From the IMG/VR virus record IMGVR_UViG_2541047683_000006, positions 1 to 37,959 of that record: a DNA stretch of 37,959 nucleotides; one strand, written 5' to 3'. The stretch comes from a virus (taxonomy: Duplodnaviria > Heunggongvirae > Uroviricota > Caudoviricetes). Within the stretch, counting starts at the first letter, position 1. Every line of letters begins with the position of its first letter. The notes beneath the pieces were generated by a model, which was not told where the DNA came from, searched no databases, and was given only the letters and a program-made list of their open reading frames with translations. Position numbers and translations under genes: made by a program. Below are positions 3,471-14,487 of the stretch, piece after piece.

Positions 3471-4295
3471 TCAGGCGGTGAAAGTACCAATAAAGGTTTC
3501 TACTTTGCTGTCTTTGAATTTCTCAACAAGCAGATCACGAAATTCGTTAGCCATTTCTTCCTGCACTGCTTCCAGCTGAATAATGCGCAGAACCAGTACA
3601 GGACGATCGCCAGTGATAATGCTGAGGCGTAATTTAAATGGACGTTCTTTCAGACCTTCAAACGGAACGCATTTAAATTCAAATGCCACTGGCATAATAT
3701 CTTTGGTCTTCGCTTCGACAGACTCCATCAGGGAGCGTTTGCCGCTGAAGTCATTATCTTCAAAATCAGCGGTCTGGTTTGCTTCAATCGTGATTTTACG
3801 GACAGCCGCAGCCGATTTTGTTGCCTGAATAGCGTCACCATTAGCATCAAAGCCCACAAGGTAGTCGGCCCAGTCTTCAATCCATTCTGCCAGTGACTTC
3901 TGGGAGTTACGCTCGCCATTAACAGACAACAGAGCAGAGAACGGTGCTGTCTTTTTCAGTTTGAGAGTGGCGGTGTTATCTGCGTGACCTGGTTCATCAA
4001 TAGTACCCAGGTTAATCACACTGACGGCTCGCATATTATCGGCATCGATAAAGCAGCGGGTGCCTTCATCTGCAAGATCTTTAGAATAACGGGTAAAGTC
4101 ATCGATGCTGGCAGTGGAAAGCGCACCACGGAAACGGAAGCGATTTAAATTAAATTTCTCCAGATCATGAATGCGGAAATTCTCAGGCAATGCCACAGCA
4201 TCGGCACCAATCTTACTGATAATTTCATTAACACCCTGAGCAGAAATAAGGGCATGGATTTGATTAATTGCGGTTGCGTCTAAGTTCTGAGACAT
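3471..4295 (-). CDS. YfdQ-like protein (DUF2303 family)
   Basis: 274 aa; overall resemblance to E. coli CPS-53 prophage YfdQ as recalled, and adjacency to YfdP-like and YfdR-like genes; SD GAGGA upstream. Confidence 0.5.
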
Positions 4296-4360
4296 AATAA
4301 GTCCTCACTATATAAAGATATTCAGTGATGAGATAAATAATCGGTTAATTAAGAACGATA

Positions 4361-4723
4361 TTAATGACCTGCTGCGCGGAGTTTTCCGTCAGGTTCACCG
4401 GCAAGAGTCAGTAATTGTCCCTGGTCTTCCTGCAGAATAGTCAGGCGGCCACCGCGATTGACATACATCGGCGTTTCGGTGGTGTCTTCTTCGGAAATTT
4501 TCCCGCGGTTAGTCGGGCGAACATATGAGAGTTTGTGTTTGATTTTCACACGGTTCTCATCAAATGGTTCGATTTCCAGGTTGAGCGAGACCTTACCTTT
4601 GGTTTTCGTGTTCATCACACCGGAAGCGACTTCACTGAGAACTGCGCCGATTTTGGTTTCAAATACGCCGCCGTCCAGCTCCCCGATAAATGCCTGCACA
4701 TCAGTACTGCGTTCGCTAGCCAT
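4361..4723 (-). CDS. YfdP-like hypothetical protein (120 aa), first gene of the PL operon
   Basis: Internal ATG (MASERSTDV...) of track ORF 4361..5041 with SD GAGGAG upstream; the track extension upstream is GC-rich and low-complexity, so treated as non-coding leader. Confidence 0.45.
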   Translation of the reverse strand: MASERSTDVQAFIGELDGGVFETKIGAVLSEVASGVMNTKTKGKVSLNLEIEPFDENRVKIKHKLSYVRPTNRGKISEEDTTETPMYVNRGGRLTILQEDQGQLLTLAGEPDGKLRAAGH

Positions 4724-8024: not shown

Positions 8025-8513
8025 ATGAGTCTTTTGAATGACGTTCAGAAATTCATTGAAGCCCATCCGGGGTGTACTTCCGGAGACATTGCGGATGCTT
8101 TTGCAGGTTACTCACGGCAGCGCGTTCTGCAGTCAGCAAGCAAGTTACGTCAGAGTGGGCGTGTGGCTCACCGTTGTGAAGGAGATACACGCAGACATTT
8201 CCCACGCCTGACTGAGAGAGCGCAGGAGCCGGAACCACAACCAGTTCGTGAAACCAGACCTGTGCGCAATTTCTATGTCGGCACTAACGATCCCCGGGTG
8301 ATTTTGTGCCTGACCCGCCAGGCTGAAGAACTGGAGTCAAGGGGCTTATACCGTCGTGCTGCAACCGTGTGGATGGCGGCATTCCGTGAAAGCCACTCCC
8401 AGCCAGAACGAAACAATTTTCTGGCGCGTCGTGAGCGGTGCTTACGGAAAAGCAGCAAGCGAGCTGTATCGGGTGATGAGTGGTATCTGTCAGGGAATTA
8501 CGTGGGGGCTTAA
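8025..8513 (+). CDS. PerC-family transcriptional regulator-like protein
   Basis: ATG at 8025 (track ORF starts earlier at 7947); C-terminal region LESRGLYRRAATVWMAAFRESHSQPERNNFLARRERC resembles PerC-type proteins as I recall them. Confidence 0.4.
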   Translation: MSLLNDVQKFIEAHPGCTSGDIADAFAGYSRQRVLQSASKLRQSGRVAHRCEGDTRRHFPRLTERAQEPEPQPVRETRPVRNFYVGTNDPRVILCLTRQAEELESRGLYRRAATVWMAAFRESHSQPERNNFLARRERCLRKSSKRAVSGDEWYLSGNYVGA

Positions 8514-9166
8514 TGAGTAATAAATATTGCCAGGCGCTGGTGGAACTGCGGAACAAACCAGCCCATGAACTGAAGGAAGTGGGCGATCAGTGGCGCACGC
8601 CGGACAACATTTTCTGGGGAATTAACACCCTGTTTGGCCCGTTTGTTCTGGATCTGTTCACTGACGGTGATAACGCCAAATGTGCTGCGTATTACACGGC
8701 GGAAGACAACGCGCTGGCGCATGACTGGTCAGAACGTCTTGCGGAGCTTAAAGGGGCTGCCTTTGGTAATCCCCCATACAGCCGCGCCAGTCAGCATGAG
8801 GGGCAATACATCACCGGCATGCGTTACATCATGAAACATGCCAGTGCCATGCGTGATAAGGGTGGGCGCTATGTTTTCCTGATCAAAGCTGCCACCAGCG
8901 AAGTGTGGTGGCCGGAAGATGCAGACCATATTGCTTTTATTCGCGGGCGTATTGGTTTTGAACTGCCTGCCTGGTTTATCCCGAAGGATGAGAAGCAGGT
9001 GCCGACAGGCGCTTTCTTCGCTGGTGCTATTGCTGTTTTCGACAAGACCTGGAAGGGACCGGCAATCAGCTACATCGGGCGCGATGAACTTGAGGCATGT
9101 GGTGAGGCGTTTTTGGCGCAGGTTCGCCAGCAGGCAGAAAAACTTGTCAGGGAGATGGCGGCATGA
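8513..9166 (+). CDS. DNA N6-adenine methyltransferase (phage Dam-like, orphan)
   Basis: 217 aa from ATG 8513, which overlaps the upstream stop; catalytic NPPY motif (FGNPPYS); no adjacent restriction endonuclease gene. Confidence 0.7.
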   Translation: MSNKYCQALVELRNKPAHELKEVGDQWRTPDNIFWGINTLFGPFVLDLFTDGDNAKCAAYYTAEDNALAHDWSERLAELKGAAFGNPPYSRASQHEGQYITGMRYIMKHASAMRDKGGRYVFLIKAATSEVWWPEDADHIAFIRGRIGFELPAWFIPKDEKQVPTGAFFAGAIAVFDKTWKGPAISYIGRDELEACGEAFLAQVRQQAEKLVREMAA

Positions 9167-10705: not shown

Positions 10706-11701
10706 GTGACCGTGAGAGCACTACTGACCCCTGAAATTGCCCCGCGTATGGGGATCGTATTGTTCAGGCCAGGTTCAGAGCTGATGCCCCTGTTTATGCA
10801 GGGGCGTGTTCTGCTGGAGCCTGAGCCGGAACGTTATTCATCTTTCGCCAGTGGTGCCGTTCCGGCGGCATCACAACCGCTGGCGGATGATCCTGCCGTT
10901 CGGGCCGTGTTCCGCAATGAGGCAGTGATCCGTCGTGCTGGTGGCGTGGAATGTCTTGAAAGCTGGTTACTTCGTGAAAAAGGCTGCCAGTGGCCTCATT
11001 CCGACTGGCACAGCGAGAACATGACCACAATGCGACACGCTCCGGGCGCAATCCGTCTGTGCTGGCACTGCGATAACCAGCTGCGCGATCAGTTCACGGA
11101 ACGGCTGGAATCAATGGCAACGGATAACTGTGCCCGCTGGGTGTTGTCTGTTGTGCGTCGGGATCTCGGTTTTGATGATAGTCACGTTGTGACAATGCCG
11201 GAACTGTGCTGGTGGCTGATTCGTAATGACCTGGCGGATGCCTTACCGGAAAGTGCAGCCCGTAAGGCACTGAGATTACCAAAGCCTGTTGTGCCGTCTG
11301 TCACCCGGGAAAGTGACCTTGTGCCTTCGGTTCCTGCCACCGGCATCATCCAGGATAAGGCAAAAAAGGTGCTGGCGCTGAAAGTGGATCCGGAGTCGCC
11401 GGAGTCTTTTATGTTACGCCCAAAACGCCGCCGCTGGGTTAATGAAAAGTACACGCGCTGGGTTAAGACACAGCCGTGTGCATGTTGTGGAAAGCCTGCT
11501 GATGATCCCCACCACCTGATAGGCCACGGTCAGGGTGGAATGGGTACAAAAGCGCATGACCTCTTTGTGTTGCCTTTGTGCAGAAAGCATCACGACGAGC
11601 TGCATGCGGATACCGTGGCATTTGAAGAGAAGTATGGCTCCCAGCTGGAGCTGATATTTCGTTTTATCGATCGTGCGCTGGCAATTGGCGTATTGGCGTA
11701 A
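10706..11701 (+). CDS. DUF968-family protein with a C-terminal Cys/His HNH-like motif
   Basis: 331 aa; C-terminal CACCGKPADDPHHLIGHGQGGMGTKAHD...CRKHHDELH; GTG start is uncertain, an alternative ATG lies 42 nt downstream. Confidence 0.45.
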   Translation: MTVRALLTPEIAPRMGIVLFRPGSELMPLFMQGRVLLEPEPERYSSFASGAVPAASQPLADDPAVRAVFRNEAVIRRAGGVECLESWLLREKGCQWPHSDWHSENMTTMRHAPGAIRLCWHCDNQLRDQFTERLESMATDNCARWVLSVVRRDLGFDDSHVVTMPELCWWLIRNDLADALPESAARKALRLPKPVVPSVTRESDLVPSVPATGIIQDKAKKVLALKVDPESPESFMLRPKRRRWVNEKYTRWVKTQPCACCGKPADDPHHLIGHGQGGMGTKAHDLFVLPLCRKHHDELHADTVAFEEKYGSQLELIFRFIDRALAIGVLA

Positions 11702-11714
11702 GTGGAGAACGAGC

Positions 11715-12467
11715 ATGAACCTTGAAGCCTTACCAAAATATTACTCCCCAAAATCTCCAAAATTGAGCGATGACGCACCGGCGACAGGCTCAGGTGGTTT
11801 AACGATTACGGATGTGATGGCTGCGCAGGGGATGGTGCAGTCGAAAGCACCGCTTGGGTTTGCCTTATTCCTGGCAAAAGTTGGTGTTCAGGATCCTCAA
11901 TTTGCGATTGAAGGTCTGCTCAATTACGCGATGGCACTGGATAACCCGACATTGAACAAATTGAGTGAAGAAACCCGGTTACAGATCATCCCTTACCTTG
12001 TGAATTTTGCCTTTGCTGATTATTCCAGGTCTGCGGCAAGTAAGGCTCGCTGTGAGCATTGTGCTGGTACTGGATTTCATAATGTATTGCGCGAAGTGGT
12101 GAAACACTCCAGAAGCGGGGAATCTGTTATCAAGGAAGAGTGGGTGAAGGAACTATGTCAGCATTGCCATGGTAAGGGAGAAGTCAGCACAGCGTGCAGA
12201 GGGTGTAAGGGTAAAGGTATTGTCCTGGATGAAAAAAGAACCCGGCTTCATGGTGTGCCTGTTTATAAGATTTGTGGGCGTTGCAATGGCAACCGGTTTA
12301 GCCGTTTACCAACCACACTGGCGCGGCATCATGTCCAGAAACTGGTACCGGACCTGACGGATTATCAGTGGTACAAAGGATATGCAGACGTTATTAATAA
12401 ACTGGTTACAAAGTGCTGGCAGGAAGAAGCGTATGCTGAATCGCAATTGAGAAAAGTGACGAGATAA
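11715..12467 (+). CDS. Late-gene antitermination protein Q-like
   Basis: 250 aa from ATG 11715 (SD GGAGAA); four CxxC pairs (CEHCAGTG, CQHCHGKG, CRGCKGKG, CGRCNGN); directly upstream of a promoter plus short terminated transcript and the lysis genes. Confidence 0.55.
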   Translation: MNLEALPKYYSPKSPKLSDDAPATGSGGLTITDVMAAQGMVQSKAPLGFALFLAKVGVQDPQFAIEGLLNYAMALDNPTLNKLSEETRLQIIPYLVNFAFADYSRSAASKARCEHCAGTGFHNVLREVVKHSRSGESVIKEEWVKELCQHCHGKGEVSTACRGCKGKGIVLDEKRTRLHGVPVYKICGRCNGNRFSRLPTTLARHHVQKLVPDLTDYQWYKGYADVINKLVTKCWQEEAYAESQLRKVTR

Positions 12468-12498
12468 ATGATTTTCGCCGAAGATGGCGACATGATTC

Positions 12499-12527
12499 TT
12501 GCATTTTTCAAAAAATTTGGTTAGGAT
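12499..12527 (+). promoter_or_regulatory. PR'-like late promoter
   Basis: TTGCAT, 17-nt spacer, TAGGAT immediately downstream of the Q-like gene. Confidence 0.45.
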
Positions 12528-12573
12528 TCTCCTGACGATGGGCTTTGTGTGTCTACCGTTGATAATCTTCAAG

Positions 12574-12596
12574 AAACCGCCACCGAGCGGTTTTTT
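12574..12596 (+). terminator. tR'-like intrinsic terminator
   Basis: aaaccgc-caccga-gcggttt stem followed by a T6 run, about 45 nt downstream of the putative late promoter. Confidence 0.5.
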
Positions 12597-12755
12597 ATTG
12601 ATGTCAATTGTGTTTTTAAGGCTCTCCTTCCTTAAAGTGTGTTGTACAAAAAACTGGCAGCCAGCTACGCTCATTTTGAAAAAGTGACACCCTTCAATGT
12701 TTCTTTTGAATGGAATTGCTACCCATAAATCTCTATCAAAAACAGGAGAGCATAT

Positions 12756-12998
12756 ATGGTGGAGCGTTGTTCTGTTTGTGAGCAGTCATTAAGTTATTCA
12801 CGAGAAGTTGAACAAGATGGCGTTGAATATAAATCTTGCCCAAAATGTTCTGCTGATGCCGGAGTGCACGTTTTTTATAAAACAATAGACTTTGGTTATA
12901 GGGATATGGGAGACGGAAGGCATATCGTTCAGTCATGGTGTCCGGCTTGTCGTTCTGGTGAAAAACCTTCTATACCACCAGCATTTAAATGTTGTTAA
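12756..12998 (+). CDS. Cys-rich small protein (zinc-ribbon-like), moron between Q and holin
   Basis: 80-aa ORF with ATG and SD CAGGAGAG; CxxC pairs CSVC, CPKC, CPAC and a C-terminal KCC; AT-rich context; followed by a strong terminator. Confidence 0.4.
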   Translation: MVERCSVCEQSLSYSREVEQDGVEYKSCPKCSADAGVHVFYKTIDFGYRDMGDGRHIVQSWCPACRSGEKPSIPPAFKCC

Positions 12999-13017
12999 CT
13001 CAATGAATTATAAAAAG

Positions 13018-13042
13018 AGGCTGCCTGTGGGCGGCCTTTTTT
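13018..13042 (+). terminator. Rho-independent terminator after the Cys-rich ORF
   Basis: aggctgcc-tgtg-ggcggcct stem (one G-U pair) followed by TTTTTT. Confidence 0.6.
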
Positions 13043-13129
13043 GTGCACTACGCAACTTTTGCGACTCAGCGCTATAACCAGCTTCTTTCCCTTCACTCGT
13101 TGCACTTCCGATAACCGGAGGTGGGAATT

Positions 13130-13471
13130 ATGAAAATGCATAACGATCCTCATTCCTGGTCTGACTTACTTGAATTGTTACAGAGCTGGTGGCGTGGAGA
13201 CACACCGCTGGGCGCAGTAATTATGTCGATCGTTATGGCTGGCTTGCGCATTGCCTATTTTGGCGGTGGTGGTGGCTGGAAGCGAAAAACGATCGAGATT
13301 TTGCTCTGCGGCGCTCTGACGCTGACTTTTGCATCCGCTCTTGAGTATGTCGGATGGCCTAAATCGCTTTCTGTTGCCATTGGTGGTGGCGTTGGGTTGA
13401 TCGGTGTCGATGCTATTCGTGGGGCTGCAATGAGAGTAATCGGTAATAAGTTTGGTGGCTCTAAGGAGTAA
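13130..13471 (+). CDS. Holin with dual-start motif
   Basis: N-terminus MKMHND (Met-Lys-Met), hydrophobic helices, Gly-rich GGGGGW and a charged C-terminus; SD GGAGGTGGG; directly upstream of the endolysin. Confidence 0.65.
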   Translation: MKMHNDPHSWSDLLELLQSWWRGDTPLGAVIMSIVMAGLRIAYFGGGGGWKRKTIEILLCGALTLTFASALEYVGWPKSLSVAIGGGVGLIGVDAIRGAAMRVIGNKFGGSKE

Positions 13472-13474
13472 TTT

Positions 13475-13951
13475 ATGCAGGTACTAAATTCCCAGCGTAA
13501 AGCTTTCCTCGATATGGTGGCATGGTCAGAAGGAACGGATAACGGGCGACAACCGACACGTAATCACGGTTATGATGTTATTGTTGGCGGAGAACTGTTT
13601 ACTGATTATTCTGATCACCCTCGCAAACTTGTCACGCTAAACCCCAAACTCAAATCAACAGCCGCCGGACGTTATCAGCTTCTTTCACGCTGGTGGGATG
13701 CCTACCGCAAGCAGCTTGCTCTGAAAGACTTCTCCCCCAAAAGCCAGGATGCTGTGGCACTGCAACAGATTAAAGAGCGTGGCGCTTTACCGATGATTGA
13801 TCGCGGTGATATTCGTCAGGCAATCGACCGTTGCAGCAATATCTGGGCTTCACTGCCGGGCGCTGGTTATGGTCAGTATGAACATAAAATCGGTGATCTG
13901 ATTGCCCGGTTTAAAGAGGCTGGTGGGGTGGTAAATGAAGTTGAGCTATAA
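13475..13951 (+). CDS. R: Endolysin, lambda R-like lytic transglycosylase
   Basis: 158 aa, highly similar along its length to phage lambda R as I recall it (NSQRKAFLDM.AWSEGTDNGRQ.TRNHGYDVIVGGELFTDYSDHPRKLVTLNPKLKST). Confidence 0.9.
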   Translation: MQVLNSQRKAFLDMVAWSEGTDNGRQPTRNHGYDVIVGGELFTDYSDHPRKLVTLNPKLKSTAAGRYQLLSRWWDAYRKQLALKDFSPKSQDAVALQQIKERGALPMIDRGDIRQAIDRCSNIWASLPGAGYGQYEHKIGDLIARFKEAGGVVNEVEL

Positions 13952-14327
13952 GTTGGTTATCGCTGCATTCTTCTTTACTGTCATCGGTTCTTTCATCTGG
14001 TCTGCCAACCACTACTACAGCAAATATCAGCACGAAAAGAAACGTGCTGATGAGGCTGTACAAAATGCCAAATCGGCAACTGTCATTACCAATAACGTCC
14101 TGCAATCACTGCAAATCGTCAATACAGTTCTGGAGGCTAACCAGCATGCAAAACAGCAGATCACACTGGAGTCACAGAGAACCCAGGAAGATATCAAAGT
14201 GGCTGTTGCGGATGATGATTGTGCTTCACGTCCTGTGCCTGCTGTCGCTGCTGACCGGTTGCGGAAATTCGCGAACGGTTTACGTGAGCGCTCCGGTGGC
14301 ACCACTGCCAGCCAGCCTGACTTCTGA
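13935..14327 (+). CDS. i-spanin (Rz-like)
   Basis: 130 aa with an N-terminal transmembrane helix then charged/coiled region; ATG overlaps the end of the endolysin gene; contains an embedded out-of-frame lipoprotein ORF. Confidence 0.65.
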   Translation: MKLSYKLVIAAFFFTVIGSFIWSANHYYSKYQHEKKRADEAVQNAKSATVITNNVLQSLQIVNTVLEANQHAKQQITLESQRTQEDIKVAVADDDCASRPVPAVAADRLRKFANGLRERSGGTTASQPDF

Positions 14328-14487
14328 TACTCCTGTACCGTTTATACCCAATCCGCTGACGTATGGTGCCAGTCTGGAGTTGAATGTGAGTCTGTTGTCA
14401 GCGTTGGGACAATGCAATATTGACAAAGCGGGGATTAGAAAGATAGAGGCGAGCCGGTCAGGTAGAAATGAATCAGACTCAAAGTGA
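14212..14487 (+). CDS. o-spanin (Rz1-like lipoprotein), overlapping the Rz-like gene in another frame and extending past it
   Basis: Internal ATG of track ORF 14044..14487; signal peptide with lipobox LLTGC; Pro-rich mature region. Confidence 0.5.
   Translation: MMIVLHVLCLLSLLTGCGNSRTVYVSAPVAPLPASLTSDTPVPFIPNPLTYGASLELNVSLLSALGQCNIDKAGIRKIEASRSGRNESDSK

Follow-up and report, generated by a model that had tools for sequence, protein, structure and literature searches.

The window analysed here, a stretch of 37,959 nucleotides (nt) deposited as IMG/VR record IMGVR_UViG_2541047683_000006, is read as an SfV-like lambdoid prophage of Escherichia coli. Between the gene of its Q-type late antiterminator and that of its holin lies a gene for a protein of 80 amino acids (aa), situated at 12756..12998 on the + strand and referred to below as X; L and P numbers denote the compared loci and family proteins, respectively. 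Overall, X is best explained, with a probability of about 0.5, as a two-zinc late cargo gene, the product of which would be a nucleic-acid-binding module at the interface of adenine methylation and restriction. As far as gene neighbourhoods and domain fusions tell, the family has N6-adenine methylases, DpnII-type endonucleases and HNH nucleases as its only consistent genomic partners, and the role of X is probably in the struggle of phage and host over DNA methylation, not that of a toxin or a lysis factor. The family itself has already been catalogued (phrog_7682); what is new here is that it is consistently linked to adenine methylases, to systems of the DpnII type and to PUA-HNH nucleases.

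X is a true gene that is maintained by selection, and its product (MVERCSVCEQSLSYSREVEQDGVEYKSCPKCSADAGVHVFYKTIDFGYRDMGDGRHIVQSWCPACRSGEKPSIPPAFKCC, 80 aa) has a mass of about 9 kDa. Pairwise Nei-Gojobori estimates over 231 usable homologue pairs gave a median ratio of nonsynonymous to synonymous substitution rates (dN/dS) of 0.16, and a spurious open reading frame (ORF) is excluded because X is under purifying selection. A word-indexed search returned 20 clusters of proteins of 78–80 aa (identity, 55–99%), and an exhaustive profile search of 1.8 billion proteins yielded 277 representatives at E <= 1e-3, with 57 at E <= 1e-10. Of 5426 complete E. coli genomes, 23 contain the 663-nt interval from Q to the holin at an identity of at least 97.7%. 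Among 50,697 deposited phage genomes, tblastn detected no homologue of X, and megablast matched no more than the initial 93 nt that follow Q. The Prokaryotic Genome Annotation Pipeline (PGAP) makes no gene call for the intact 80-codon ORF in several complete E. coli genomes, and the identical sequence is called "hypothetical protein" elsewhere. Disrupted copies were suspected where nothing is annotated; this was ruled out, as every copy checked proved intact, including those in all five of the checked E. coli genomes without a PGAP gene call (L104–L108), where the differences are mostly synonymous. An earlier reading of the window, made from the sequence only, had asked whether the ORF might be disrupted in relatives or free of any signature of selection; the intact copies and the low dN/dS answer this in favour of the gene.

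A profile search revealed that X matches phrog_7682 over its entire length (E-value, 7.2e-60; residues 1–80 on positions 1–80 of the 80-column profile). The sequence-only reading had recognised no family: a full-length family match does exist, but that PHROG has no assigned function. Pfam and NCBIfam scans of X gave nothing above the cut-offs, PADLOC-DB v2 contained no defence family for X at E <= 10, and no significant fold neighbour was found in PDB or BFVD. Below the cut-offs, X scored 14.9 bits with Zn_ribbon_TFIIB (cut-off, 22) and 19.5 bits with the FmdB-type profile CxxC_CxxC_SSSS (cut-off, 31.3). The three CxxC pairs described earlier (C5/C8, C28/C31 and C62/C65) and the terminal KCC are indeed present; C5, C8, C28, C31 and H38 are invariant in the family, C62, C65 and C79 nearly so, and this conservation, along with the sub-threshold zinc-ribbon matches, bears out the proposed zinc-ribbon-like character. 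The KCC motif as such was only half right, since Cys79 is conserved but the final Cys80 is not, the residue usually being Lys.

Among 170 family members, a short subfamily devoid of C5/C8 also lacks H38 and the C-terminal Cys, while C28/C31/C62/C65 are always kept; the same joint loss of C5/C8, H38 and the C-terminal Cys is seen in P0141. All forms share K26, C28, P29, C31, G47, R49, G54, C62, C65 and R66. Because the ligands covary across the family, two putative zinc sites can be proposed. The pattern suggests a core Cys4 site (C28/C31/C62/C65) and an accessory Cys3His site (C5/C8/H38/C79); alternatively, the ligands may pair as C5/C8/C28/C31 and H38/C62/C65/C79. Either way, X probably binds two zinc ions. 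The possibility that X is itself an HNH/beta-beta-alpha-Me nuclease, raised by a match to Hpy99I and by the CxxC...H...CxxC arrangement, was rejected, as the family does not conserve the residues that might be catalytic.

The X domain is also found as a part of larger proteins. It is N-terminal and an HNH domain C-terminal in P0073, P0086, P0089, P0119, P0128, P0083, P0122 and the protein of L035; in P0141 the X domain precedes NOV_C, a restriction-endonuclease-like domain, and in P0080 it is C-terminal to DndB. Fusion relatives combine a PUA-like domain of the ASCH/EVE/YTH kind with a McrA-like HNH domain, and in P0122 and P0083 the X domain is the sole non-catalytic domain. The genes of P0073, P0089 and P0122 are located 0–9 nt downstream of a DpnII endonuclease gene, or overlap it, and are accompanied by D12 (DpnM-like) and/or N6_N4 (DpnA-like) methylases. 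The gene of P0086 is preceded by a MutH-like gene (a faint match) and overlaps that of an N6_N4 methylase, the gene of P0141 begins 10 nt after a D12 methylase, and the fusion of L035 lies between D12 and N6_N4 methylases. No fusion of X with a methylase occurs among the fusion proteins scanned. At the level of sequence, these comparisons establish the homology of X to a nuclease N-terminal domain and its linkage to methylases and DpnII. The fusion proteins resemble the modification-dependent PUA-HNH endonucleases (VcaM4I EVE-HNH, TagI and EcoKMcrA) in carrying a PUA-like domain together with a McrA-like HNH; they differ in the additional N-terminal X domain and in adjoining DpnII and adenine methylases, and the protein of the window corresponds to the X domain without a nuclease. 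In P0057 and P0139, a DUF3553-like N-terminal segment (GDxVxH...G.V), reminiscent of the Tudor-like domains at helicase C-termini, stands ahead of the X domain.

Stand-alone X is directly linked to an N6-adenine methylase in 17 of 39 genomic-contig loci, and three unrelated methylase families are involved. The MT-A70 methylases (L010, L011, L012 and L088), the genes of which range in position from a 4-nt overlap with X to 53 nt upstream, have about 190–200 aa and are almost wholly covered by the catalytic-domain profile. N6_N4 methylases are encoded 126 nt upstream of X (L009 and relatives), 204–209 nt downstream of it (L013, L014, L079, L091 and L092) or on the opposite strand at a distance of 6–58 nt (L030, L034, L041 and L042), and D12/Dam methylases 3–13 nt upstream (L033, L037 and L038). 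On one phage contig, X is followed by a ParB_N-N6_N4 gene near the terminase. Cassettes of the order D12, DUF6996/6997/7226, X and N6_N4 are found in L029, L030, L039, L041 and L042 and around P0142. The DUF6996-DUF6997-DUF7226 protein, of about 430 aa, lies between D12 (DpnM-like) and N6_N4 (DpnA-like) genes in L029 (1966–3246), L030 (2656–3954), L039 (1790–3076) and L113 (2105–3388); being in the position of the endonuclease, it is a candidate restriction endonuclease of GATC-type systems, and a literature search on DUF6996, DUF6997 and DUF7226 found no papers.

The linkage extends to the cargo of phage SfV (L126, NC_003444), in which the slot corresponding to that of X (1457–2892) harbours orf47 (64 aa), the gene of a DNA methyltransferase of 350 aa and another terminator. 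In L013, L014, L079, L091 and L092, the methylase encoded downstream of X is 80–82% identical to the SfV slot methylase, with X in these five loci taking the upstream position of orf47, and X, orf47 and the methylase occur together in L099–L101. The product of SfV orf47 resembles a small winged-helix protein. The methylases of the SfV slot type are taken here as M.EcoGII-like. M.EcoGII (349 aa) is reported to be one of a large family of methylases that prophages encode and enterobacterial phages share, and to be toxic and silent in lysogens (PMC5778455).

The RAMA, HARE-HTH and ASCH domains were predicted to discriminate N6-methyladenine (m6A) from their fusion to nucleases and their occurrence in operons with N6-adenine methylases (Iyer, Zhang and Aravind 2016, PMC4738411; see also PMC11037411). 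X shows both of these context features, namely fusion to restriction-type nuclease domains (HNH, NOV_C and DndB) and linkage to methylases, and, by the same logic, it is likely a nucleic-acid-binding protein of the methylation/restriction interface. The likeness is one of context: X, a small Cys/His domain, has no sequence or fold relation to these domains, and m6A reading by X is hypothetical. According to this reading, X would be a free copy of the N-terminal targeting or sensor domain of the ASCH-HNH, HNH and PD-(D/E)xK-type nucleases encoded in DpnII/Dam-type (GATC, N6-adenine) cassettes. It would bind nucleic acid, likeliest DNA in or near the sites of adenine methylation, perhaps in dependence on their methylation state, and would act at the methylation/restriction interface during lytic growth. 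X is most likely tied particularly to GATC/DpnII-Dam systems and to phage methylases of the M.EcoGII type. The sub-mechanism we prefer is counter-restriction, X occluding sites on adenine-methylated phage DNA; within counter-restriction, X might alternatively serve as a decoy for the nucleases that use the same module. A bolder version, which we regard as unlikely, sees in X an undescribed two-zinc DNA-binding fold that reads the adenine-methylation state (e.g., of GATC), serves as a targeting domain for the companion nucleases of DpnII/Dam-type restriction-modification systems of hosts and has been captured by temperate phages as a free-standing decoy or shield travelling with, or replacing, promiscuous adenine methylases; X would then represent counter-restriction proteins of a new class, encoded where the late operon begins.

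Several observations weigh against the methylation/restriction assignment. The X gene of the window adjoins no methylase gene; the nearest, coding for a phage Dam-type N6-adenine methyltransferase (8513..9166, + strand; TIGR01712 phage_N6A_met, 1.7e-76, and PGAP annotation), belongs to another operon in the early-right region of the same prophage, 3.6 kb upstream. The E. coli protein is slightly acidic (net charge, −1; isoelectric point (pI), about 6), in contrast to the basic character of the fused and the short forms (median pI, 8.6–9.0). The RDMGDGR loop is specific to the enterobacterial subfamily, and because it is absent from the fused forms, the function of the enterobacterial X may have diverged. 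Some homologues (L025, L026, L032, P0173 and P0242) are found in housekeeping or unrelated contexts. Finally, X is placed between an inferred late promoter and the first terminator in many relatives, which would result in expression in the lysogen and fit purely lytic counter-restriction less well.

X could instead be a small zinc-finger regulator of modification or restriction genes that times or restrains a toxic methylase or nuclease in the manner of Mu Com or of C proteins, which we consider improbable, if better placed than the other alternatives. Com is the zinc-finger translational activator of the DNA-modification gene mom of phage Mu. Like Com, X would be a small phage zinc-finger protein linked to a gene for DNA adenine modification, the spacing of its first two Cys pairs (CxxC-x19-SCPKC) resembles that of Com, and two sources call family members "phage FluMu protein Com". 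The small X gene is operonic beside methylase or nuclease genes and, in the five loci in which it replaces orf47, stands directly upstream of the M.EcoGII-like methylase; the toxicity of M.EcoGII and its silence in lysogens (PMC5778455) would also suit such control. On the other hand, X has no detectable homology to Com. Membership of the Mu Com family (PF10122, Zn_ribbon_Com) was rejected, the hhalign probability being 4.2% over 26 columns and PF10122 not being among the matches of X at E <= 1; this profile finds Mu Com itself (2.7e-9) but, at E <= 10, not the "Com"-named family members P0201 and P0242. X is also longer than Com, has eight conserved ligands instead of four, and its gene order varies: it is oftener downstream than upstream of the methylase and sometimes on the opposite strand. 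No adjacent target gene is present in the window, and the repeated nuclease fusions in which X is the sole non-catalytic domain (P0122 and P0083) suit a substrate-targeting module better than a regulator.

A cofactor of adenine methyltransferases, which would bind the enzyme or the DNA and stimulate or redirect methylation as Ral and Lar do, is somewhat more doubtful still. Lar is a Cys-containing ribbon-like protein, and Lar and Ral, like X in the present proposal, are small prophage proteins bearing on the balance of restriction and modification. A cofactor would account for the tight operons with three methylase families (MT-A70 genes overlap X by 4 nt or lie up to 53 nt from it, and D12 genes are 3–25 nt away), for the minimal size of the MT-A70 partners (~190–200 aa) and for the Dam-type methylase encoded by the prophage of the window. 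However, the partner methylases come from unrelated families, the larger of them may have recognition domains of their own, X is fused to nucleases that have no methylase domain, and the fusion proteins scanned include none of X with a methylase. Lar and Ral act on the type I system EcoKI, but the links of X are to systems of the Dam/DpnII and M.EcoGII types, and a Lar-like identity of X was rejected, its match to phrog_6422 being not significant (E-value, 0.7; 11.3 bits).

The transcriptional setting of X bears on a third alternative. The Q gene (11715..12467, + strand) encodes a QuuQ/YdfT-like late antiterminator of 250 aa with a DnaJ-like CxxCxGxG zinc module (PF03589, 6.9e-54; phrog_127, 1.6e-108); it is 97% identical to Q of SfV, and identical E. 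coli copies are labelled "antitermination protein" by PGAP. It is followed on the same strand by an inferred late promoter PR' (12499..12542), read from the sequence as a −35 box TTGCAT (12499–12504), a 17-nt spacer, a −10 box TAGGAT (12522–12527) and ACGATGGG (12535–12542), the last of which we take to be comparable to the sigma-dependent pause element of lambda PR'. Directly 3' of PR' is a tR'-like intrinsic terminator (12571..12596, + strand), a hairpin of −13.1 kcal/mol (z-score, −3.9) followed by T6; the SfV record describes the homologous hairpin as a putative terminator of the rho-independent kind. The cassette leader comes next (12627..12755, + strand), about 110 nt of which are homologous to the leaders of distant X homologues, with a Shine-Dalgarno sequence AGGAG (12744–12748) placed 7 nt before the ATG of X. 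A second intrinsic terminator with a 13-bp stem, a TGTG loop and T6 follows the stop codon of X (13013..13042, + strand; −19.6 kcal/mol; z-score, −3.35 against shuffles). Both hairpins were found by folding with shuffle z-scores; a simple terminator scan missed them because A-U pairs at the base of the stem use up the T-run. Rfam gave only sub-threshold matches in 12300–13300, located over the terminator. Nucleotide homology with distant X loci begins inside the ORF and ends at 13042–13044, and of 50 distinct homologous loci, 38 have a hairpin with a T-run 3' of the X gene, the stems differing in an apparently compensating manner. Thus, the terminator belongs to the cassette. In Photorhabdus (L016–L023 and L027), a long near-perfect inverted repeat without a T-run replaces the usual terminator 3' of X, and ERIC-like repeats flank or interrupt the region upstream of X in L019, L023 and L027. 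Just downstream of X in an IMG/VR prophage contig (L089, 4463–4651), the small RNA STnc100 is matched with 72.9 bits, which is above the Rfam gathering score.

A scan for sigma-70-like promoters in 12300–13300 returned no + strand site of at least 9/12, the stretch from tR' to the ATG with the cassette leader included, weak or non-canonical promoters being able to escape at this threshold; the inferred PR' itself scores 8/12. X thus shows no sign of the promoter that would mark an autonomous moron: none was detected for it, and PR' and tR' (12499–12596) precede it. For the same reasons X is likely the first late gene, and as the first gene of the late operon it is probably expressed in dependence on Q. 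RNA polymerase modified by Q would pass tR', transcribe X and read on through the cassette terminator into S-R-Rz; without Q, the two serial terminators would insulate the lysis genes.

The arrangement is different in many non-E. coli loci and genera, in which an element of about 42 nt, TAACGCGTACGCAAAAACTATCGTAA.CTGTTAAGAGTGGTC, is strongly conserved about 150 nt upstream of X (L070, 3836–3877). The element also occurs in 233 E. coli genomes without X, downstream of small genes of the "antiterminator Q family" and 5' of a short hairpin terminator, which is followed by tRNAs (L102; element at 2501–2542) or by a lambda holin (L103; element at 2501–2541). Probably, the element serves a phage type with another, small Q as late promoter and site of Q loading. 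In L070, the only such locus scanned, no terminator is found between the element and X, and X would for this reason be made from PR' even without Q in loci of this type. A diverged copy of the element was considered for window 12640–12690 and dropped, as MAFFT did not align the two and only the ~110-nt leader is homologous. In L102, PGAP annotates a 36-aa "antiterminator" coding sequence that begins at the 3' end of the element. Reverse-strand cassettes between the small Q gene and the element were observed in L103 (607–2459, minus strand), L070, L089, L093, L096, L100 and L102; that of L103 codes for a DUF262 protein and a HEPN-like nuclease, and such cassettes look like defence cargo in a second slot.

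Against this background, a classical moron that is expressed in the lysogen independently of Q, with a host phenotype such as phage exclusion or altered physiology, appears less probable again than a cofactor. Its position, its own terminator and its deviant GC content agree with such a moron, and some homologues are found in defence islands with GmrSD, AIPR or STAND genes. As lambda PR' is constitutive, the relatives in which X lies between a late-promoter-like element and the first predicted terminator would express it in the lysogen, should their promoter be constitutive too. In the window, tR' separates PR' from X and 12597–12755 contains no detected promoter; moreover, an 80-aa domain without an effector is unlikely to be a stand-alone defence protein, and X matches no PADLOC model. 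Of four marks of a moron, the three that can be recognised for X are its presence or absence in relatives, its deviant GC content and its own terminator, the missing one being its own promoter, so the moron label put forward in the sequence-only reading holds in part. Least probable by far is that X encodes a late protein of structural or lysis-accessory function or is an ORF without function: the former has in its favour solely that X directly precedes the holin gene and is co-transcribed with the lysis genes, X contains no membrane-span-like stretch by hydrophobic-segment count, its homologues inhabit restriction-modification cassettes and non-phage contexts, the homologous lysis cassettes of SfV, L003 and RX24 do without X, and purifying selection excludes the latter.

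As to the surroundings of X, SfV is 97% identical to the window over 11261–12596 and 89% over 13118–14456, with different content between, and the PR'-tR' segment after Q is common to SfV and 178 E. coli genomes. The left junction of the cargo slot (12597..12626) is a recombination joint at which homology to L002, L003 and SfV breaks: L003 parts from the window at 12600 (the divergence of L003 and SfV falls within 12596–12600), and in L002 (E. coli E7476) a two-gene insert of 1.7 kb is located exactly between 12596 and 12627, upstream of X. The right junction spans 13045..13117, SfV homology returning at 13118, just 5' of the holin ribosome-binding site. Since the homology of SfV, L002 and L003 breaks at the same joint, the slot 12597–13117 is taken to be a sharply bounded exchange site, with X as its only cargo here. 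SfV, L002, L003 and L103 have the flanks of the slot in common with the window, but not the cassette. X is a rare alternative cargo, given that SfV-type cargo fills the slot in 1194 of 5426 E. coli genomes, compared with 23 that carry X. The insert of L002 (2272–3855) consists of a gene for 336 aa and then one for 188 aa with about four hydrophobic segments, neither of which has an NCBIfam match. In L003 (E. coli FHI_NMBU_10), which has Q, PR' and tR' as in window 11600–12600, the slot (4204–4383) contains a Cys-rich ORF of 60 aa (MSNTRCSNESCNKEF...ICPYCGH..., WP_023154804.1) that has no homology to X, and the holin gene after it is another one; it may be that small proteins resembling zinc ribbons recur as cargo of this slot.

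Downstream of the slot are the genes of a lambda-family holin S (13130..13471, + strand; PF05106, 6.2e-28; phrog_126/phrog_90 among the lysis-gene matches; PGAP annotation) and of the endolysin (13475–13951), followed by Rz/Rz1. The layout given in the sequence-only reading, an 80-aa ORF between a Q-like antiterminator and the holin, with a strong Shine-Dalgarno sequence, a hairpin/T6 terminator and an AT-rich composition, was found as described, the GC content being 0.365–0.41 over 12600–12999 against 0.455–0.565 upstream and 0.46–0.535 downstream. The claim that this is a moron position also proved sound, as the slot is swappable, with flanks 89–97% identical in SfV and other E. coli prophages and different genes inside. 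In Stx phages, the stx genes are situated between Q and the lysis genes, and the analogy drawn with them is apt for the position and not for a toxin nature, the contexts of X pointing to adenine methylation and restriction. As in the tR'-holin slot of SfV and Stx phages, X is found downstream of Q, PR' and tR', has its own rho-independent terminator and is expected to be read through under the control of Q; its cargo differs in being an 80-aa putative zinc protein instead of a methylase or a toxin.

Thus, a rare cargo of the Q-lysis slot, which is also home to Shiga toxin and the non-specific adenine methylase M.EcoGII, belongs to a widespread, unnamed zinc-domain family. In practical terms, the intact X left without a PGAP call in several genomes marks a gap in annotation. 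If binding of DNA according to its methylation state were true of X, a zinc-based reader would join wH and YTH as m6A discriminators, along with ASCH, RAMA and HARE-HTH, for which this property is predicted. It would likewise provide a handle on the uncharacterised four-gene DpnII-like systems with a second nuclease, and X would be a candidate anti-restriction gene in E. coli prophages.

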